Of a stretch of DNA of 9,611 nucleotides, positions 1 to 9,611 are shown in pieces. The notes beneath the pieces are model-generated. The model saw nothing but the letters and a program-made list of their open reading frames with translations, was not told the origin of the DNA and did no database searches. The DNA lies in the IMG/VR virus record IMGVR_UViG_2693429529_000026; one strand, written 5' to 3'. The number at the start of each line of letters is the position of its first letter. The first letter of the stretch is position 1. Origin of the DNA: a virus (Duplodnaviria; Heunggongvirae; Uroviricota; Caudoviricetes). The position numbers and the translations under genes are program-made.

Positions 1-483
1 ATGACGAAGAAAAAAGCACATAAACCTGGTTCAGCGACCATCGCGCTTAACAAGCGCGCCCGTCACGAATACTTTATCGAAGAAGAGTTCGAAGCGGGAC
101 TTGCCCTGCAAGGCTGGGAGGTTAAATCCCTGCGCGCAGGAAAAGCCAATATCAGCGACAGCTACGTCCTTCTGCGTGACGGAGAGGCATTTCTGTTTGG
201 CGCTAACATCACGCCAATGGCCGTGGCCTCCACGCATGTGGTGTGCGATCCTACCCGTACCCGCAAGTTACTTCTCAACCAGCGCGAACTGGACTCATTG
301 TACGGTCGCGTCAATCGAGAAGGCTATACCGTAGTGGCGCTCTCCCTGTACTGGAAAAATGCCTGGTGCAAAGTGAAAATCGGCGTCGCCAAAGGTAAAA
401 AACAGCACGATAAACGTTCAGATATCAAAGAACGCGAATGGCAGGTGGATAAAGCACGTATCATGAAAAACGCCCACCGTTAA
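1..483 (+). CDS. smpB: SsrA-binding protein SmpB (160 aa)
   Basis: Full-length ORF whose translation I recognise as enterobacterial SmpB; the tmRNA gene follows immediately, which is the conserved smpB-ssrA arrangement. Confidence 0.95.
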
Positions 484-653
484 ACCTGCACTCCAATTAT
501 TGACCAGTTCCTCACCGCGCCTCCCTCTCCGGCGGCGCGAATCAACATCTTATTGGCTATCACATCCGACACAAATGTTGCCATCCCATTGCTTAATCGA
601 ATAAAAATCAGGCTACATGGGTGCTAAATCTTTAACGATAACGCCATTGAGGC

Positions 654-683
654 TGGTCATGGCGCTCATAAATCTGGTATACT
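654..683 (+). promoter_or_regulatory. Candidate ssrA promoter (-35 TGGTCA approx 654-659, -10 TATACT 678-683)
   Basis: Hexamers with 18 bp spacing about 15 nt upstream of the mature tmRNA 5' end; consistent with a short RNase P-processed leader. Read by eye only. Confidence 0.3.
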
Positions 684-697
684 TACCTTTACACATT

Positions 698-1060
698 GGG
701 GCTGATTCTGGATTCGACGGGATTTGCGAAACCCAAGGTGCATGCCGAGGGGCGGTTGGCCTCGTAAAAAGCCGCAAAAAATAGTCGCAAACGACGAAAA
801 CTACGCTTTAGCAGCTTAATAACCTGCTTAGAGCCCTCTCTCCCTAGCCTCCGCTCTTAGGACGGGGATCAAGAGAGGTCAAACCCAAAAGAGATCGCGT
901 GGAAGCCCTGCCTGGGGTTGAAGCGTTAAAACTTAATCAGGCTAGTTTGTTAGTGGCGTGTCCGTCCGCAGCTGGCAAGCGAATGTAAAGACTGACTAAG
1001 CATGTAGTACCGAGGATGTAGGAATTTCGGACGCGGGTTCAACTCCCGCCAGCTCCACCA
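698..1060 (+). ncRNA. ssrA: tmRNA (transfer-messenger RNA, 363 nt)
   Basis: Begins GGGGCTGATTCTGGATTCGACGGG and ends GGTTCAACTCCCGCCAGCTCCACCA (tRNA-like acceptor/T-arm with CCA); internal tag frame encodes ANDENYALAA. Confidence 0.95.
787..819 (+). other. tmRNA tag-peptide reading frame (resume codon GCA; ANDENYALAA; TAA followed by a second TAA at 820-822)
   Basis: GCA AAC GAC GAA AAC TAC GCT TTA GCA GCT TAA read directly inside ssrA. Confidence 0.85.
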
Positions 1061-1190
1061 ATCATGATTGGACGGTGTAAGGACAACACCAACAAAAACA
1101 GGAAGTTAGCAGTCTCAGCAGGACACCGACCAGACGGTGAGGAGACAAAAAAGGATACGCAAAGGAGCCGCGGCTCTCAAGTGTGAAAGA

Positions 1191-1216
1191 AGCCCGCAAA
1201 TTGCGGGCTTTTTTAT
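1191..1216 (+). terminator. Intrinsic terminator downstream of ssrA
   Basis: Perfect 7 bp GC-rich stem AGCCCGC / GCGGGCT with 5 nt loop, followed by TTTTTT. Confidence 0.6.
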
Positions 1217-1269
1217 TGATCAGTCAACAATAAACAGTAACCGAATGAGAATTTAATAAGGATATTCAT

Positions 1270-2301
1270 ATGGAAGCTACTGTGGATTCGATTGATTTTC
1301 TGATCCGTAGTGAAGATGATTTTCTAAACTTTCTGGAAGAAATGAAAGCCCGAGAGGGGCTTGATTCTAAAGAGTTTATTTTCCCTAACGTAAAGTTTGC
1401 AGGCTGGCCATCCTTAGACATAAATGTAAAAGGAGAGCGGTATCATTCATCAATTACATCAGCAATGTTGTTTGGTATGTCAATGCTCAACGAGGAGATA
1501 CAGCGGGCGTTTGCAACCATACGATACGGATCGCAGAATCTTCAACGCTTGACTAATGAAGACAAGCAACGACTTGATATAAATTTTAAAATTAGCGAAG
1601 GTTCTAGTGATGCGGAAGGCACCACTGACAAGATCATCAACGCAGTAACTGATTTTTTGCGAGATACTATGTCTGGACTGAACGGCTGGCAGAAAATGCT
1701 TGTTATAATCACAATGGTTGGCGCGGCCAGCACATGTGGTTATCACTACATTTCAGAAAATGCCGTAACAGAAAGACATGCAACTGATCGGCAGGTTGAA
1801 ATTGCAAAAACCACATCCGATGGCATAAACAAAGCCATAGAAGCAACATTAGATTATAAAATCTATGGGAAATCAGCGATTAGCGATAAAGTTACTAGTC
1901 ACGGACAAGCAGGTAAAAGTGCTTTAGTGAAGCAATTAGCTGCTGATCCTACTGTCGAAACCGTGACTTTAGGAAATGAGAAACTAACACGACAAGACCT
2001 AAATACCTACAACAGCCGACAATCTGTAGATAGAGAACGTAAAGAACGAACTGATATATTTTCCATCAAAGGTGTAACCAGAACAGGGCCAACAAATCAG
2101 GATATTAATATTAACGTTGTTAGGGTCTCTAATGACGAATGCTTCACAATCAAAGCTTCAGCTGATGTTATCACCCAAGATGAGTTGACAGCTATTGTTG
2201 ACGCTTTGTCAAACAACTCTCATATTAAAATCAGTTACTTAGAGGTAATTGAAAAGGGTGCTGTTTCTATAGGTCAGTTCAACACTATTGTTTCAGAATA
2301 A
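1270..2301 (+). CDS. Hypothetical protein, 343 aa, one central hydrophobic segment; no family recognised
   Basis: Long ORF with AAGGA Shine-Dalgarno 7 nt upstream of ATG; AT-rich codon usage unlike smpB; hydrophobic stretch WQKMLVIITMVGAASTCGYHYI. Confidence 0.75.
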   Translation: MEATVDSIDFLIRSEDDFLNFLEEMKAREGLDSKEFIFPNVKFAGWPSLDINVKGERYHSSITSAMLFGMSMLNEEIQRAFATIRYGSQNLQRLTNEDKQRLDINFKISEGSSDAEGTTDKIINAVTDFLRDTMSGLNGWQKMLVIITMVGAASTCGYHYISENAVTERHATDRQVEIAKTTSDGINKAIEATLDYKIYGKSAISDKVTSHGQAGKSALVKQLAADPTVETVTLGNEKLTRQDLNTYNSRQSVDRERKERTDIFSIKGVTRTGPTNQDININVVRVSNDECFTIKASADVITQDELTAIVDALSNNSHIKISYLEVIEKGAVSIGQFNTIVSE

Positions 2302-2352
2302 TCACTTAACCCCATTTATGTCGGTTGAGGTTATAAGTCACGGAGACCAGAT

Positions 2353-2697
2353 ATGTCCTTAAAGTATGCACATGAAAAATTTCATACTGCAGTACTTACT
2401 CTTGCGGGCCATGGAAGTATTCAAGAACGCTTGATTAATTCGTATGTTTTTAGCCTTGGGCATCTTAAAACAGCCGATGATATTCCAAATGCCTTACAAA
2501 GCAGGTTCGATGAATTATGTAAGGAACTGACTAAGTTTGATGCCACTGGCGATGAGGGGCGAGTTCAAGCAACAGTATCAAAACTTAACGATTTCGAGAT
2601 CAATAAACTGATCGAAGATATTGTCAGTCTTAACGATGATATTTGCATGAAATTGGCTCTGACGGATGAGACTTACCAAGACATACACCAAAGTTAA
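2353..2697 (+). CDS. Hypothetical small acidic protein, 114 aa; no family recognised
   Basis: ORF 51 bp downstream of the previous gene, GGAGA Shine-Dalgarno; same AT-rich composition; followed by a hairpin. Confidence 0.7.
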   Translation: MSLKYAHEKFHTAVLTLAGHGSIQERLINSYVFSLGHLKTADDIPNALQSRFDELCKELTKFDATGDEGRVQATVSKLNDFEINKLIEDIVSLNDDICMKLALTDETYQDIHQS

Positions 2698-2724
2698 TTG
2701 ATTAAATTCAAAAAGTTAACGTTC

Positions 2725-2752
2725 AACCAGCCAGTTTTTGGCTGGTTTATTG
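2725..2752 (+). terminator. Hairpin between convergent genes, likely terminator of the two-gene cassette
   Basis: AACCAGCC(A) / (T)GGCTGGTT stem with T-rich loop, followed by a T-rich but interrupted tail. Confidence 0.4.
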
Positions 2753-2781
2753 TCTTATAATATTCTTGCTCGAATGATGCA

Positions 2782-2994
2782 CTATTTATGATGTAATCCG
2801 GACATCAGTTCATGGACAAGATTATCTCTTTCATTGTGTTGCAACCGTAAATGCATAGCAAAAAGGTGAGCACTATCCTCATTCCTCTTCAAGCCATGCT
2901 GTTCAAGATACCCGAAAAAACGGCTTCTCTTATCCGCTATTTCCTGAGTCTGACGTGCAACATTTACCAAATTTTCTAGCGTTTTTCTTGGCAT
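2782..2994 (-). CDS. Hypothetical protein, 70 aa
   Basis: ORF with strong AGGAGG Shine-Dalgarno about 8 nt upstream of ATG; lies immediately downstream of pin on the same strand. Confidence 0.55.
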   Translation of the reverse strand: MPRKTLENLVNVARQTQEIADKRSRFFGYLEQHGLKRNEDSAHLFAMHLRLQHNERDNLVHELMSGLHHK

Positions 2995-3192
2995 ACTATT
3001 TCCTCCTGAAATTGTTGTAATTCACTAGGATATTCATTTTAATTTGTATCATTTAGTACCAAAACCGCTATCAATTAACAAAGCCATCGTTGTGGTTTAC
3101 CTTGCAGCCGTTTTTTGTCATTGACTCTATGTGAAAATAATGAATCATCATGAGATTGGCTCACACGTTCTTGAATTCGACGAGCTGTGTCT

Positions 3193-3747
3193 TTATTTAT
3201 CTCCTGCCGGAAACCTCTGATACAAAGTCGATACGCCAACATCATAGATAATCGCAACTTTCTGGCGCGGAACTCCTGATGCAATTAATCGTCCGGCTTG
3301 TGCCCATTGTTCTGGTGTAAGTTTGGGACGACGTCCACCAATTCGTCCCTGTGCGCGAGCAGCTTCCAGTCCAGCTTTTGTTCGTTCAACAATCAGTTCT
3401 CGTTCCATTTCAGCCAGGGCCCCCATCACATGAAAGAAAAAGCGCCCCATTGGGGTACTGGTATCAATTGAATCCGTCAGACTACGAAAGTTGATGCCTC
3501 GTTCGCGCAACTCCTCCACCAGCACGACAAGATGCCGCATACTGCGCCCCAGTCGGTCCAGTTTCCAGACCACCAGCGTATCGCCTGCCGATAATGTCCT
3601 GAGCAGTTTTTTCAGTCCCGGCCTTTCGGACTTTGTACCGCTTATCTTGTCTTCAAAAATCAGCTCGCATCCTGCACAGTTCAGCGCATTACGTTGTAGA
3701 TCTGTGTTCTGGTCATTTGTTGACACACGTACATAGCCAATAAGCNN
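3193..3747 (-). CDS. pin: Serine recombinase, DNA invertase Pin/Gin/Hin family (about 184 aa); start codon partly masked by the N-run
   Basis: N-terminus (M)LIGYVRVSTNDQNTDLQRNAL carries the catalytic serine motif of resolvase/invertases; C-terminal helix-turn-helix region; length and sequence resemble e14 PinE. The ORF track starts at the internal GTG at 3726; the ATG inferred from the other two copies falls at 3745-3747. Confidence 0.9.
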   Translation of the reverse strand, partial: XLIGYVRVSTNDQNTDLQRNALNCAGCELIFEDKISGTKSERPGLKKLLRTLSAGDTLVVWKLDRLGRSMRHLVVLVEELRERGINFRSLTDSIDTSTPMGRFFFHVMGALAEMERELIVERTKAGLEAARAQGRIGGRRPKLTPEQWAQAGRLIASGVPRQKVAIIYDVGVSTLYQRFPAGDK

Positions 3748-3756
3748 NNNNNNNNN
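3746..3756. other. Run of 11 N (assembly gap or masked junction) between pin start and the IS end
   Basis: Literal n characters in the sequence. Confidence 1.
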
Positions 3757-3765
3757 TTGTAGTGG

Positions 3766-5575
<1,810 letters not shown>

Positions 5576-5578
5576 TCC

Positions 5579-6340
5579 ATGCATCGTATAGACACGAAAA
5601 CCGCGCAGAAGGATAAGTTCGGCGCGGGTAAGAACGGTTTTACCCGTGGTAACCCCCAGACCGGCACACCTGCCACCGATCTGGATGATGACTACTTTGA
5701 CATGTTGCAGGAAGAACTCTGCAGCGTGGTGGAGGCATCCGGTGCCAGCCTGGAGAAGGGGCGGCATGACCAGCTGCTTACCGCGCTTCGTGCGCTGCTG
5801 TTAAGCCGCAAGAATCCGTTTGGCGATATCAAATCTGATGGCACGGTGAAAACGGCTCTCGAAAACCTTGGTTTGGGAGAAGGTTCGGCATTACCCGTTG
5901 GTGTGCCTGTTCCGTGGCCTTCCGCCACTCCGCCAACGGGGTGGCTAAAATGTAACGGAGCAGTATTTTCTTCTGAAAAGTACCCAAATCTGGCAAAGGC
6001 TTACCCAACATTAAAATTACCAGATTTACGCGGTGAATTTATTCGTGGCTGGGATGATGGGCGCGGGATTGACTCTGGTCGTAACTTATTATCTGCACAG
6101 AATGATGCAATTCAGAATATTGTTGGTTCTTTTGGGCGTACCCAGCTTTTTAGAGACGTACTTAGTTCAGGGCCATTTAGTCAACATGGGCAAGTATTAT
6201 CTACAGGTCTAAAGGAAGCCGCAATTATTGAGGGTTATGGCGCTTATAACTGGACATTCGACGCATCTCGCTCAGTTCGCACAGCATCTGAAACCCGCTC
6301 CCGTAACATCGCCTTTAATTATATTGTGAGGGCTGCATGA
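5579..6340 (+). CDS. stf: Side tail fibre protein (constant N-terminal region fused to variable C-terminal cassette 1), 253 aa
   Basis: N-terminus [29 protein letters not shown]...[11 protein letters not shown] is the conserved phage Stf head; GGAG Shine-Dalgarno; the crossover site lies inside the gene at the constant/variable boundary. Confidence 0.8.
5856..5881. other. Invertase crossover site (hix/gix-like), left junction: CTCTCGAAAACC-TT-GGTTTGGGAGAA
   Basis: Resembles hix/gix as I recall them (TTCTTGAAAACC-AA-GGTTTTTGATAA); sits exactly where the duplicated cassette sequence begins (5868). Confidence 0.6.
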
Positions 6341-6891
6341 TAAGTAAAGCTGTATTAAATAATGAACTCATCGCCACAAAGGCCGGAGACATTACCGTTT
6401 ATAATTATGATGGTGAAACACGGGAATATATTTCCACATCAACTGAATATCTTGCTGTGGGTGTTGGTATCCCGGCATGTTCCTGTTTAGATGCTCCTGG
6501 CTCATATAAAGCTGGTTATGCAATTTGCCGTTCTGCAGATTTTAACTCATGGGAATATGTGCCAGACCATCGCGGTGAAATCGTCTATAGCACCGAAACA
6601 GGAGAATCAAAAGAAATCACACTTCCGGGTGATTACCCTGAAAATACAACCACTATCGCCCCGTTAACGTCATACGATAAATGGGATGGTGAGAAATGGG
6701 TGACCGATACTGAGGCACAGCATAACGCCGCAGTAGACGCGGCAGAAGTACGGCGCCAGTCACTGATTGATGCTGCTATGGCTTCCATTAGTCTGATTCA
6801 GCTGAAATTGCAGGCCGGGCGGAAGCTGACGCAGGCAGAAACAACCCGGCTTAACGCTGTGCTGGATTACATTGACGCGGTGACTGCAACA
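5868..6891 (+). repeat. Direct repeat, copy A of about 1024 bp (cassette 1 plus tfa); partner at 7275-8298
   Basis: ORF translations identical between copies; constant offset of 1407 bp from ORF coordinates. Confidence 0.85.
6337..6891 (+). CDS. tfa: Tail fibre assembly protein Tfa, copy A, 3' end replaced at the N junction (chimeric ORF continues to 7197)
   Basis: Identical to the full-length copy 7744-8349 for the first 185 codons, then a single N and antisense pin sequence. Confidence 0.6.
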
Positions 6892-6892
6892 N
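6892..6892. other. Single N at a chimeric junction (tfa codon 185 joined to the interior of pin, antisense)
   Basis: Position deduced from ORF-track coordinates; sequence on either side matches different genes. Confidence 0.8.
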
Positions 6893-6893
6893 G

Positions 6894-7208
6894 AAAGAAA
6901 AAGCGCCCCATTGGGGTACTGGTATCAATTGAATCCGTCAGACTACGAAAGTTGATGCCTCGTTCGCGCAACTCCTCCACCAGCACGACAAGATGCCGCA
7001 TACTGCGCCCCAGTCGGTCCAGTTTCCAGACCACCAGCGTATCGCCTGCCGATAATGTCCTGAGCAGTTTTTTCAGTCCCGGCCTTTCGGACTTTGTACC
7101 GCTTATCTTGTCTTCAAAAATCAGCTCGCATCCTGCACAGTTCAGCGCATTACGTTGTAGATCTGTGTTCTGGTCATTTGTTGACACACGTACATAGCCA
7201 ATAAGCAT
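6894..7208 (-). pseudogene. pin: Partial pin invertase (codons 1-105 only), identical to the 5' part of pin at 3193-3747
   Basis: MLIGYVRVSTNDQ...MGRFFF then the junction; same nucleotide sequence as copy 1 at offset 3461. Confidence 0.8.
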
Positions 7209-7262
7209 GGTAGATCTCCCTGACAAAAGCAGGAATGATGCCATTTGCTCGTTATTTCTGCA

Positions 7263-7288
7263 TTTTCATAAACGTTGGTTTGGGAGAA
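7263..7288. other. Invertase crossover site, pin-proximal type: TTTTCATAAACG-TT-GGTTTGGGAGAA
   Basis: Same inner half-site as 5856-5881, different outer half-site. Confidence 0.55.
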
Positions 7289-7747
7289 GGTTCGGCATTA
7301 CCCGTTGGTGTGCCTGTTCCGTGGCCTTCCGCCACTCCGCCAACGGGGTGGCTAAAATGTAACGGAGCAGTATTTTCTTCTGAAAAGTACCCAAATCTGG
7401 CAAAGGCTTACCCAACATTAAAATTACCAGATTTACGCGGTGAATTTATTCGTGGCTGGGATGATGGGCGCGGGATTGACTCTGGTCGTAACTTATTATC
7501 TGCACAGAATGATGCAATTCAGAATATTGTTGGTTCTTTTGGGCGTACCCAGCTTTTTAGAGACGTACTTAGTTCAGGGCCATTTAGTCAACATGGGCAA
7601 GTATTATCTACAGGTCTAAAGGAAGCCGCAATTATTGAGGGTTATGGCGCTTATAACTGGACATTCGACGCATCTCGCTCAGTTCGCACAGCATCTGAAA
7701 CCCGCTCCCGTAACATCGCCTTTAATTATATTGTGAGGGCTGCATGA
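7277..7747 (+). CDS. Tail fibre variable C-terminal cassette 1, second copy (not fused to the constant region here)
   Basis: Identical to 5870-6340; the upstream in-frame ATG at 7235 lies in the pin-proximal spacer. Confidence 0.55.
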   Translation, partial: GLGEGSALPVGVPVPWPSATPPTGWLKCNGAVFSSEKYPNLAKAYPTLKLPDLRGEFIRGWDDGRGIDSGRNLLSAQNDAIQNIVGSFGRTQLFRDVLSSGPFSQHGQVLSTGLKEAAIIEGYGAYNWTFDASRSVRTASETRSRNIAFNYIVRAA

Positions 7748-8349
7748 TAAGTAAAGCTGTATTAAATAATGAACTCATCGCCACAAAGGCCGGAGACATT
7801 ACCGTTTATAATTATGATGGTGAAACACGGGAATATATTTCCACATCAACTGAATATCTTGCTGTGGGTGTTGGTATCCCGGCATGTTCCTGTTTAGATG
7901 CTCCTGGCTCATATAAAGCTGGTTATGCAATTTGCCGTTCTGCAGATTTTAACTCATGGGAATATGTGCCAGACCATCGCGGTGAAATCGTCTATAGCAC
8001 CGAAACAGGAGAATCAAAAGAAATCACACTTCCGGGTGATTACCCTGAAAATACAACCACTATCGCCCCGTTAACGTCATACGATAAATGGGATGGTGAG
8101 AAATGGGTGACCGATACTGAGGCACAGCATAACGCCGCAGTAGACGCGGCAGAAGTACGGCGCCAGTCACTGATTGATGCTGCTATGGCTTCCATTAGTC
8201 TGATTCAGCTGAAATTGCAGGCCGGGCGGAAGCTGACGCAGGCAGAAACAACCCGGCTTAACGCTGTGCTGGATTACATTGACGCGGTGACTGCAACAGA
8301 TACCAGCACCGCGCCGGATGTCATCTGGCCTGAACTACCGGAGGCGTAG
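7744..8349 (+). CDS. tfa: Tail fibre assembly protein Tfa, full length (201 aa)
   Basis: C-terminus ...[26 protein letters not shown] is the conserved Tfa tail; ATG overlaps the stf stop (ATGA). Confidence 0.85.
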   Translation: MISKAVLNNELIATKAGDITVYNYDGETREYISTSTEYLAVGVGIPACSCLDAPGSYKAGYAICRSADFNSWEYVPDHRGEIVYSTETGESKEITLPGDYPENTTTIAPLTSYDKWDGEKWVTDTEAQHNAAVDAAEVRRQSLIDAAMASISLIQLKLQAGRKLTQAETTRLNAVLDYIDAVTATDTSTAPDVIWPELPEA

Positions 8350-8764
8350 GCCATTCAATATCTGGAGCACTGGAGGTATCAACCAGTTCCAGTGCGTCCA
8401 GATAATCCAGCCATAAATTATATTGTTCCAGCTCGTAACCTTTCAGACGACCAATAGCAGCTTTGCCAGGCCACTGATGGGTATTGATGTAGGTATTGAC
8501 TTCTGAAACCAAAGATATCTTTTTCATTTCAGCCGCCAGCATCTCATCCTCTTTTGAAGGCGGCGGGGAATTAATCCATATTGGCCGTCCTGAACTGTCA
8601 GCGCCAATTTCTTTCCCTTCTGGATGCAGCCCAAGAAATTGCTCATATGTTTCTCTGGTAATTTCAATAACATCATCAGGAAGCGTTCCCGCATCCTCAT
8701 ATTCTGGAAACAATTCTTGCAGATAAAAACTTTTACTTGCGGGTGAAAAGAATACTGAGTTCAT
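8321..8764 (-). CDS. tfa: Alternative tail fibre assembly protein Tfa' (147 aa), convergent and overlapping tfa
   Basis: C-terminus ...LWLDYLDALELVDTSSAPDIEWPTPP matches the Tfa family tail; arrangement as in Mu U/U' and e14 tfaP/tfaE. Confidence 0.85.
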   Translation of the reverse strand: MNSVFFSPASKSFYLQELFPEYEDAGTLPDDVIEITRETYEQFLGLHPEGKEIGADSSGRPIWINSPPPSKEDEMLAAEMKKISLVSEVNTYINTHQWPGKAAIGRLKGYELEQYNLWLDYLDALELVDTSSAPDIEWPTPPVVQAR

Positions 8765-8766
8765 TC

Positions 8767-9219
8767 TTACCGTCCAATGATTAACGCTGAGACGCTGGTA
8801 TCTGAAGGAAAGGCTGCATTCAGTGGTTTGTCGACTTTGAACACAATCGTATTATTCCCCCTGACAGCGGCAAAAGAACAAACCGCCGTCGCGTATGAAC
8901 CTGTAATATTACTGGATACACCACCATAAGCTGTTGTTGATACCAGAGGGATAACGCCCAGCACCTTATTAGGAAATACAAAGGGCAATGTGGCTGTGGC
9001 AATATAAGACTTATTAGAACCTGTAATGGCATAAGCATTATCAGTCATTCCATTCATCGCCACTGGACCGCTTATACTTACAGTAACCATCTGAATGATT
9101 AGCCCGTCAGGTTGACGAATCACAAAATTTCCATTGCCACCAGTAACCGTCCAGAAAGACATATCAGGGATTTGGTTTTCCCCGTTGCCCACATTTCGTT
9201 TTGCCGCTTCTCCCAAACC
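8767..9219 (-). CDS. Alternative tail fibre variable C-terminal cassette 2, expressed only after inversion fuses it to the constant region
   Basis: In frame across the crossover site (...GLGE|AAKRNVGNGENQIP...); different sequence from cassette 1; sits upstream of tfa' on the same strand. Confidence 0.7.
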   Translation of the reverse strand, partial: GLGEAAKRNVGNGENQIPDMSFWTVTGGNGNFVIRQPDGLIIQMVTVSISGPVAMNGMTDNAYAITGSNKSYIATATLPFVFPNKVLGVIPLVSTTAYGGVSSNITGSYATAVCSFAAVRGNNTIVFKVDKPLNAAFPSDTSVSALIIGR

Positions 9220-9233
9220 AACGTTTATGAAAA
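9208..9233. other. Invertase crossover site, right junction (reverse complement of the 7263-7288 site)
   Basis: Mirror image of the site at 7263-7288. Confidence 0.55.
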
Positions 9234-9287
9234 TGCAGAAATAACGAGCAAATGGCATCATTCCTGCTTTTGTCAGGGAGATCTACC

Positions 9288-9611
9288 ATGCTTATTGGCT
9301 ATGTACGTGTGTCAACAAATGACCAGAACACAGATCTACAACGTAATGCGCTGAACTGTGCAGGATGCGAGCTGATTTTTGAAGACAAGATAAGCGGTAC
9401 AAAGTCCGAAAGGCCGGGACTGAAAAAACTGCTCAGGACATTATCGGCAGGCGATACGCTGGTGGTCTGGAAACTGGACCGACTGGGGCGCAGTATGCGG
9501 CATCTTGTCGTGCTGGTGGAGGAGTTGCGCGAACGAGGCATCAACTTTCGTAGTCTGACGGATTCAATTGATACCAGTACCCCAATGGGGCGCTTTTTCT
9601 TTCATGTGATG
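9288..9611 (+). CDS. pin: Pin-family DNA invertase, 5' portion (108 codons), runs off the window end
   Basis: ATG CTT ATT GGC TAT GTA CGT GTG TCA... = MLIGYVRVSTNDQ...; identical to the other pin copies. Confidence 0.9.
   Translation, partial: MLIGYVRVSTNDQNTDLQRNALNCAGCELIFEDKISGTKSERPGLKKLLRTLSAGDTLVVWKLDRLGRSMRHLVVLVEELRERGINFRSLTDSIDTSTPMGRFFFHVM

Follow-up and report, generated by a model that had tools for sequence, protein, structure and literature searches.

Gin of phage Mu, Cin of phage P1 and Hin of Salmonella belong to the Din family of serine invertases, and from what is established for them a Fis-dependent recombinational enhancer would be expected within the 5' part of pin as well. 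The Mu Gin/G, P1 Cin/C and Salmonella Hin/H systems resemble the locus described here in having a recombinase with Resolvase and HTH_7 domains, inverted 26-bp sites and a 2-bp exchange core. Mu and P1 also switch tail-fibre C-terminal cassettes together with assembly genes, as at the present locus. The element studied here is a chromosomal prophage remnant rather than an active phage. It shares its gene order with the invertible P segment of the cryptic prophage e14 of E. coli K-12, with its invertase PinE (Plasterk and van de Putte 1985; Mehta et al. 2004, both as cited in PMC4272514): ymfQ, the constant part of the tail-fibre gene, two cassettes in opposite orientations that both include a tfa gene, and pin. 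Both orientations of the e14 segment occur together in clonal cultures (PMC4272514).

The window, that is the whole stretch of 9,611 nt analysed here, was byte-identical to part of the draft E. coli scaffold CYEK01000044.1 (GCA_001286265.2). It corresponds to 423–10033 of the source locus, and the scaffold ends at 10035, 2 nt beyond the window and inside pin. Compared with K-12 e14, the Pin protein was identical at 180 of 184 residues, the ymfQ–Sc region (ymfQ–stfP 5' part) showed 97% nucleotide identity, and the 26-mers at 5856–5881 and 9208–9233 were both identical to the e14 crossover sites. Cassette 1 was 84–89% identical to stfE–tfaE of K-12, and cassette 2 (Sv'–tfa') had no nucleotide similarity to stfP–tfaP outside the crossover region. 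The locus lies beside ssrA, whereas e14 lies at icd, and it is a smaller remnant, with only an IS3-family element upstream of ymfQ. None of these differences bears on the duplication discussed below.

The chromosomal flank of the window carries smpB (1–483, plus strand), identified by its ORF translation and annotated in the collinear complete genome 602687; PF01668 was found on the same gene in the source scaffold and in the sibling draft CXZN01000041.1. The tmRNA gene ssrA follows at 698–1060 on the plus strand (Rfam RF00023, 295.8 bits, full length), and the island bearing the switch adjoins it. None of the three genes lying between pin and ssrA matched a known family in Pfam, NCBIfam or PADLOC. 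A near-complete pin gene (copy A, 3193–3745, minus strand) with Resolvase and HTH_7 domains ends the first block of the window, block A, and is cut by a run of N two bases before its ATG. The IS3-family insertion sequence (3758–5014, minus strand; Pfam HTH_Tnp_1, rve and rve_3) is recorded as an IS3 family transposase in the annotations of the complete genomes PS1Thumoskin9 and 602687; its ends read TGTAGTGG... and ...CCACTACA, and block B begins one base ahead of its terminal inverted repeat. A possible second, plus-strand recombinase at 4584–4752, indicated by short pin-like matches, was dropped because the region falls within this IS3-family element and the matches are only 19–22 nt long.

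The gene ymfQ, encoding a Mu Gp48-like baseplate/tail protein (5003–5575, plus strand; PF10076, E 8e-27; annotated in 602687), is the last constant gene ahead of the tail fibre. The state-1 tail-fibre gene (5579–6340, plus strand) is a 253-aa ORF with a Phage Tail Collar domain, and an identical protein is annotated in 602687. It consists of a constant part, Sc (5579–5867), fused to the cassette part Sv (5868–6340). Next comes a redundant first copy of tfa (6337–6891, plus strand), which holds codons 1–185, is identical to 7744–8298 and ends block B; the Caudo_TAP domain was found on the full copy. Block C begins with codons 1–105 of pin (copy B, 6893–7208, minus strand), the reverse complement of 9288–9603 with 0 mismatches. 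Cassette 1 follows at 7275–8349 on the plus strand, with Sv at 7275–7747 and the full tfa at 7744–8349 (Collar and Caudo_TAP domains), and this is the genuine single copy within the invertible segment. Cassette 2 (8321–9261, minus strand), identified by ORFs and domain searches, comprises tfa' (8321–8764; Caudo_TAP, E 6e-27) and the Sv' ORF (8767–9261; Gp53-like_C, E 5e-5, slightly under the Pfam cut-off), which extends over the crossover site into the spacer. The window closes with codons 1–108 of pin (copy C, 9288–9611, plus strand). The invertible segment holds alternative C-terminal cassettes of the tail fibre, both with their own tfa assembly gene, which are fused by turns to a constant N-terminal part outside the segment.

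Pin is a small serine recombinase, with the resolvase catalytic domain at its N-terminus (PF00239, E 1.5e-51) and an HTH at its C-terminus (PF02796, E 3.6e-13). Pin aligned with Mu Gin (3UJ3) over its full length with an E value of 1.3e-93, and sequence reading found the conserved YVRVSTNDQ motif with its serine at position 9.

Comparison of four junctions located the crossover sites. The left site, junction J1 of state 1, lies at 5856–5881 (plus strand) and reads CTCTCGAAAACC TT GGTTTGGGAGAA. The right site, junction J3 of state 1, lies at 9208–9233 (plus strand) and reads TTCTCCCAAACC AA CGTTTATGAAAA. These two 26-bp sites are in inverted orientation; their half-sites are related, and both have the same central dinucleotide. 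Between them lies a hybrid site, junction J2 of state 2 (7263–7288, plus strand; TTTTCATAAACG TT GGTTTGGGAGAA), in which cassette Sv is attached to the outer half-site from the pin side; J2 matched PS1Thumoskin9 at 100%. The outer half-sites CTCTCGAAAACC on the Sc side and TTTTCATAAACG on the pin side each join through TT to GGTTTGGGAGAA followed by Sv or Sv'. All of the junctions J1–J4 were recovered, three of the four within the window. The one absent from the window is J4, the second state-2 junction, which joins Sc to Sv'; the annotation of PS1Thumoskin9, which is in state 2, includes the Sc–Sv' fusion. Together the junctions make up the reciprocal set that site-specific inversion should produce.

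Direct comparison showed that 5868–6891 is repeated at 7275–8298 over 1024 nt with 0 mismatches and an offset of 1407. The left limit of this repeat is 5867/7274 (C versus G), with its start exactly at the central TT of the crossover site, and its right limit is the N at 6892. The mirror repeat, 6893–7289 against the reverse complement of 9207–9603, was also perfect (397 nt, to 401, with 0 mismatches). Repeats of 1 kb and 0.4 kb without a mismatch are far beyond chance. Because the edges fall on the central TT of the Pin sites, the window contains both junctions of one orientation and one of the other. A direct reading of the N positions found the lone N at 6892, as the original prediction had described. 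With tfa starting at 6337, position 6891 is the final base of codon 185, and on the other side 6893–7208 holds pin codons 1–105 plus one base, with the start codon in reverse complement at 7206–7208. At this join the tfa edge (GCAACA, then G) and the antisense pin edge (ATCACA, then T) have ACA in common, with the N standing at the differing base. As evidence this match is weak, its chance probability being 1/64. The tfa sequence joined to antisense pin at 6892 reads as a 286-aa ORF.

The single N at 6892 is the second scaffold gap and separates block B from block C. The first gap, an additional run of 11 N at 3746–3756, separates block A from block B. Abutting it is a third pin 5' end that had been missed in the first reading: 3424–3745 is the reverse complement of 9290–9611 at 100% identity over 322 nt. 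The duplication of pin 5' ends was therefore rightly noted, but there are three of them rather than two, and the scaffold has three blocks. Collinearity with complete genomes fails at the two N gaps (3746–3756 and 6892), and a third inconsistency lies within block C, at a crossover site. As a separate observation, contigs recurrently end at pin codon 105–109 (window positions 6893 and 9613, and 9096 in the locus of the sibling draft CXZN01000041.1). A pin paralogue was considered as the cause of this recurrent end and rejected, since the mismatches in the sibling draft CYDJ01000039.1 cluster in a different Sv cassette and not in pin.

In the complete E. coli genome 602687 the locus is intact, in state 1, with every gene present once. 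Window positions 3758–6891 mapped to 4501–7634 of its locus and 7270–9611 to 6606–8947, and window 1–3745 was the reverse complement of 8626–12370 with 100% identity. The three blocks (1–3745, 3757–6891 and 6893–9611) tile 4501–12370 of that locus, 7,870 bp, without remainder, overlapping by 1029 nt and 322 nt at 99.9–100% identity. This collapsed locus corresponds to NZ_CP189657.1 3604370–3611685. The flanks of the gap at 3746–3756 are not neighbours in complete genomes: in 602687, the crossover site and Sv' come after pin, and a fragment of ypjA borders the IS at its outer end. A query made of the state-1 Sc–Sv junction, including the first 156 nt of cassette 1, found one place in 602687, so that the finished genome nearest to the window has just one copy of cassette 1. 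Window positions 6889–9226 were collinear at 99.8% with PS1Thumoskin9, a complete genome in the inverted state, which bears out the proposal that the sequence starting at 6893 represents, in reverse complement, the inverted state's right junction. As PS1Thumoskin9 and 602687 are in opposite states, both orientations are real and each is single-copy.

For the 6892 join itself, a 501-nt query spanning it matched over 80% or more of its length in 0 of 5,426 complete E. coli genomes. With any base allowed for the N, the join had 0 matches in genome_contigs (one genome per species) and 0 matches in metagenome_contigs; both pattern searches are weak negatives, as a literal N in the records may escape the pattern. 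Sibling drafts of the same lineage all carry the IS3 insertion, at 99.9% identity or more. CYDA01000039.1 has a clean single copy with no N, CXZN01000041.1 has three single-N joins elsewhere and all four junction types, and CYDJ01000039.1 has a mirror tangle on the Sc side with a different single N. In all, four siblings were clean and two were tangled otherwise, and the N joins never coincided in position.

Almost certainly, the mirror duplication does not exist as real DNA. With a probability of about 0.88, we consider it an artefact of scaffolding or gap filling that arose from inversion heterogeneity at a known Pin switch. The chromosome most likely has one 7,870-bp e14-type module beside ssrA, in the order IS3, ymfQ, Sc, left site, the segment Sv–tfa/tfa'–Sv', right site, spacer, pin, the three genes without a known family, ssrA and smpB. 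Pin, a Gin-like serine invertase, would flip the 2.1-kb segment between the inverted 26-bp sites, with strand exchange predicted at their central TT/AA, and the sequenced DNA would for this reason have held both orientations. Contigs for junctions of either state would have come out of the assembler and then been chained by a gap filler or a paired-end scaffolder. Block A would then be the flank and pin in reverse complement, with 11 N after it; block B would be the IS3 element through Sc–Sv–tfa with the state-1 junction J1, with one N after it; and block C would be antisense pin, the state-2 junction J2, the whole segment, the state-1 junction J3 and pin again. Block C (6893–9611) is itself a chimera of the two states: its left-hand junction belongs to state 2 and its right-hand one to state 1. 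Through such chaining, the duplicated pin ends and cassette 1 would be one DNA written two or three times. The original suggestion that the assembler joined both states agrees with the fit of 3758–6891 and 7270–9611 to 602687, with the coincidence of the joins and the N gaps, and with the differing outcomes in the siblings. N gaps at novel joins, redundant flanks and differing sibling outcomes are likewise features of short-read misassembly at invertible DNA. SSPACE and GapFiller leave N gaps at read-pair joins, and users have called them greedy, with false joins possible (PMC5320598); that Velvet, SSPACE and GapFiller produced the joins seen here is our conjecture. The block overlaps of about 320 and 1029 nt speak against an artefact in so far as they exceed what a simple de Bruijn unitig would predict, and the absence of J4 from the window is a further point against it.

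If the rearrangement were real, the chromosome would have a partial inverted duplication in which there are three crossover sites, cassette 1 occurs twice and pin has two or three 5' ends; the N would then stand for low-quality bases where new junctions truly exist. The perfect repeats, the order standing in the public record and the three-base ACA microhomology at 6892 are what could be said for it, together with the finished genome of APEC O78 (NC_020163.1, 1002064–1004184), in which the homologous segment carries a 962-nt inverted Sv–tfa duplication without N. The APEC O78 case means that mirror duplications at such loci are either real or persist into finished records. Nevertheless, each novel adjacency in the window is an N gap, the 6892 join was absent from the complete genomes and from both contig collections, and the nearest complete genomes have one copy, whichever state they are in. 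The sibling drafts are clean single-copy or tangled otherwise with N elsewhere, the scaffold stops within the third pin copy, and no recombination site explains a join of a pin 5' fragment to the middle of tfa. A real rearrangement is thus highly improbable.

The scaffold could also be wrong for other reasons. Its junctions may come from two paralogues, the ssrA remnant in state 1 and a second e14-like prophage in state 2 whose pin and cassette 1 would be identical to those of the remnant. Several pin and tail-fibre copies are common in E. coli, where the whole window found a median of 4 places per genome and junction queries reached 15, and CYDJ01000039.1 has another cassette pair beside pin (3655–4385 of its locus). 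However, the copies in the window are identical over 1024 and 397 nt, compared with 3–16% difference among e14-like paralogues elsewhere, the Sc–Sv junction query has a single place in 602687, and the pin-to-crossover spacer is identical in J2 and J3. We regard this origin, including the identical second prophage that it supposes, as very unlikely, if slightly less so than a real rearrangement. A library of two related clones or strains, each fixed in one orientation and without switching within the clone, is as improbable as a real rearrangement. Both orientations are fixed in different finished genomes, and contigs alone cannot separate a mixture from switching; yet the repeat copies show no sequence difference, several sibling assemblies of the same batch independently hold both junction types, which would need repeated contamination, and switching within a clone is documented for the homologous e14 segment (PMC4272514). 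Under the artefact reading, we infer from the contigs that both states were probably present together in this one culture.

Biologically the finding adds little, because the e14 P segment with PinE, the switch beneath it, has been known for a long time. Its practical value is as a caution on data quality: the record is public, and the false joins of the scaffold have already been called as proteins and are reaching protein databases, among them the 286-aa tfa/antisense-pin ORF and, in a sibling record, a 210-aa product with Resolvase and Caudo_TAP domains. In the very improbable case that the duplication is real, the locus would be a switch of the e14 type in which there are three crossover sites, cassette 1 occurs twice and truncated pin genes stand in opposition. 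It would then be an intermediate from a two-cassette segment toward multi-cassette inversion systems of the Min or shufflon-like kind, and the N-free 962-nt mirror duplication of APEC O78 would be a second example. The scaffold also provides indirect evidence for continued flipping of the Pin switch in this strongly reduced ssrA-side prophage remnant, which is of some interest since e14 segment inversion has been linked to phage defence (PMC12529663).

The original prediction described a mirror duplication around a single N at 6892, and its measurements held. By base-by-base comparison, the direct repeat of 5868-6891 at 7275-8298 (1024 nt, offset 1407) and the inverted repeat, which pairs 6893-7289 with 9207-9603 in reverse complement (397 nt), each contained 0 mismatches. 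The N was present at 6892; the predicted end of tfa at codon 185 agrees with its start at 6337, with that codon closed by 6891, and the predicted antisense pin codons 1-105 agree with a start codon at 7206-7208, 6893-7208 comprising these codons plus one base. The direct repeat is limited on the left by C at 5867 versus G at 7274 and on the right by the N. An unbiased repeat search also found a run of 11 N at 3746-3756, absent from the prediction. Likewise absent was a third pin 5' end: 3424-3745 matches 9290-9611 in reverse complement over 322 nt (100%), with the window end as the sole limit on the length of the match. The third copy is part of a near-complete minus-strand pin (3193-3745) that stops two bases before its ATG at the 11-N run. 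Across that gap lies an IS3-family element, with its outer end facing the N run. The pin/IS3 neighbourhood across 3746-3756 is a second false adjacency of the same scaffold.

The window was mapped with ORFs, Pfam and Rfam. smpB (1-483) and the ssrA tmRNA (698-1060) are followed by three ORFs without any family (1270-2301, 2353-2697 and 2782-2994). These ORFs between ssrA and pin, of 343, 114 and 70 aa, gave 0 matches in Pfam, NCBIfam and PADLOC, and are conserved as hypothetical proteins in complete genomes; they form an unknown small island at the ssrA integration hotspot, adjoining a recombinase. The near-complete pin encodes Resolvase and HTH_7 domains, and the IS3-family element occupies 3758-5014. 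Inside the element, the Rfam isrC sRNA had a full-length match (150 bits, 4825-4947 minus) overlapping the 5' part of orfA. ymfQ (Mu Gp48 family) lies between the element and the tail-fibre gene, and its annotated start (5003) falls in the terminal inverted repeat of the element. The 253-aa tail-fibre protein (5579-6340, Collar domain) and the cut tfa (6337-6891, Caudo_TAP) precede the N. From 6893 follow the antisense pin codons, a spacer and a crossover site, then the Sv cassette with a full tfa (7275-8349) and, on the minus strand, tfa' and Sv' (8321-9261). The rest of the window comprises a crossover site, a spacer and plus-strand pin codons 1-108.

The four possible junctions of the constant tail-fibre part (Sc) or the pin side with Sv (cassette 1) or Sv' (cassette 2) were aligned. 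CTCTCGAAAACC was the outer half-site next to Sc and TTTTCATAAACG the one next to pin; the crossover core was TT, and the inner half-site GGTTTGGGAGAA was common to both cassettes. Sc joined to Sv (5856-5881), the pin side joined to Sv (7263-7288) and the pin side joined to Sv' (9208-9233, reverse complement) were in the window, while Sc joined to Sv' was present in strain PS1Thumoskin9 and at the end of a sibling scaffold (L004). The 1024-nt repeat starts exactly at the central TT. At Din-family sites (Gin, Hin, Cin and Pin), exchange occurs at a 2-bp core, and this start is therefore the product expected of such an exchange. Judged from their sequences, the window junctions are those of site-specific inversion. 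Both 26-mers of K-12 e14 were identical to the window's crossover sites; the window Pin was identical to K-12 PinE at 180/184 positions and gave a full-length alignment with Mu Gin (3UJ3, E 1.3e-93). A short leader, MMPFARYFCIFINVGLGE, begins in the pin-crossover spacer (7235-7289 and 9207-9261 minus) in frame with whichever cassette adjoins pin, so that the 'silent' cassette is an intact ORF (169/170 and 163/164 aa). The leader-fused cassette is annotated as a separate protein in RefSeq, and the intact ORF may bear on the StfE2-type products that have been reported for e14 inversion (PMC12529663).

By megablast, no place in 5,426 complete E. coli genomes reached 80% coverage of the whole window. 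Two loci, both near-identical, were informative. Strain 602687 (L002, NZ_CP189657.1) has every gene in single copy, in the order IS3, ymfQ, tail fibre (253 aa), tfaE, tfa' (minus), Sv' (minus), pinE, three small genes, ssrA and smpB; in PS1Thumoskin9 (L001, NZ_CP180607.1), the segment bounded by the crossover sites has the opposite orientation. By pairwise BLAST, window 3758-6891, 7270-9611 and 1-3745 corresponded to 4501-7634, 6606-8947 and the reverse complement of 8626-12370 of the 602687 locus, respectively, and 6889-9226 was collinear with 5402-7739 of the PS1Thumoskin9 locus, the inverted state. The window therefore consists of three blocks, parted by N gaps, which jointly tile a single-copy locus of 7,870 bp; cassette 1 accounts for an overlap of 1029 nt, and the pin 5' end, of which there are three copies, for about 320 nt. 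The last block (6893-9611) is itself chimeric: its left junction is exclusive to state 2 of the invertible segment, and its right junction to state 1. Both kinds of junction are common among finished genomes: the state-2 and state-1 types were found at a query coverage of at least 80% in 726 and 509 of them, respectively, counts that take in related e14-like loci.

A 501-nt query centred on 6892 found no place with 80% coverage in any complete genome; the best joined places (72-76% coverage, 88-94% identity) were ordinary loci with tfa and pin about 1 kb apart. The join, with any base at the N, gave 0 matches in one-genome-per-species contigs and in metagenome contigs.

The source record was recovered through the 253-aa tail-fibre protein. 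The window is byte-identical to 423-10033 of L005, the last 10 kb of CYEK01000044.1 (GCA_001286265.2), which ends two bases past the window, inside pin. Other drafts with the same IS3 insertion were at least 99.9% identical, with the locus assembled differently. CYDA01000039.1 (L006) carries state 1 as a clean, N-free single copy, and L008-L010 are clean too. In CXZN01000041.1 (L004), three joins through a single N lie at positions quite unlike those in the window, and there are full copies of both states plus a further partial copy; the assembly of a single isolate thus contains all four junction types. CYDJ01000039.1 (L007) mirrors the window problem, with Sc, the segment, reverse-complement Sc and then a single N. 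A genuine genomic junction would be expected in relatives too; the N joins of these drafts were never shared. In L007, a different cassette pair (3655-4385; 142-aa Caudo_TAP and 136-aa Gp53-like_C proteins) lies beside pin and departs from Sv' just inside the crossover site, suggesting that this isolate has an additional cassette pair or that the draft was cross-linked to another e14-like prophage. Two independent sibling assemblies both have contigs that end at pin codon 105-109 (window 6893 and scaffold end 9613 in one, L004 9096 in the other), and this recurrence suggests an assembly-graph boundary, e.g., a repeat shared with another pin paralogue.

Clonal cultures are known to carry the homologous e14 segment in both orientations, at levels that routine whole-genome sequencing can reveal (PMC4272514). 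We infer that, with both states in the library, each segment end would have two valid neighbours, and read pairs would connect the segment, in either orientation, with both pin and Sc. Contigs of alternative states could then be chained by a greedy scaffolder, and a gap filler could lengthen contig ends into the supposed gap and never close it, leaving redundant sequence flanking a residual N. In one widely used pipeline (Velvet, SSPACE and GapFiller), read-pair joins create N gaps and these greedy tools may join falsely (PMC5320598); a pipeline of this type may have made the window scaffold.

A real chromosomal rearrangement is very unlikely, as the blocks tile a single-copy locus of finished genomes, the sibling drafts are clean or tangled otherwise, and the join is absent from all the collections searched. 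The finished APEC O78 genome (L003, NC_020163.1) speaks for it, with an inverted Sv-tfa duplication in its homologous invertible segment and no N (2565-3526 / 3724-4685, 962 nt, 1 mismatch, 197 nt apart). That repeat stands in place of most of the second cassette, and tfa persists there as two pseudogene fragments; the arrangement either arose by a real event resembling gene conversion, and so is a precedent, or is an uncorrected misassembly. The copies are perfectly identical, which disfavours derivation of the pin-Sv junction from a second, paralogous locus; moreover, the state-1 junction query found one place only in 602687, which argues against a second cassette 1 copy in the lineage. A mixture of two clones is indistinguishable from switching on the present evidence, but would need to recur in several sibling assemblies.

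Chimeric ORFs made by false joins were accepted by gene callers: a 286-aa tfa::antisense-pin ORF (6337-7197 plus) was called in the source record, and a 210-aa ORF of L004 (8789-9421) matched both Resolvase and Caudo_TAP. Artefactual chimeric proteins of this kind sit in public protein collections. The tiling, the siblings and the join tests support the prediction that both inversion states were assembled together. The mirror duplication is almost certainly not a genome feature; the biology beneath it is that of a Pin-type invertible tail-fibre segment of an ordinary and already known kind, residing in a reduced e14-like remnant beside ssrA.
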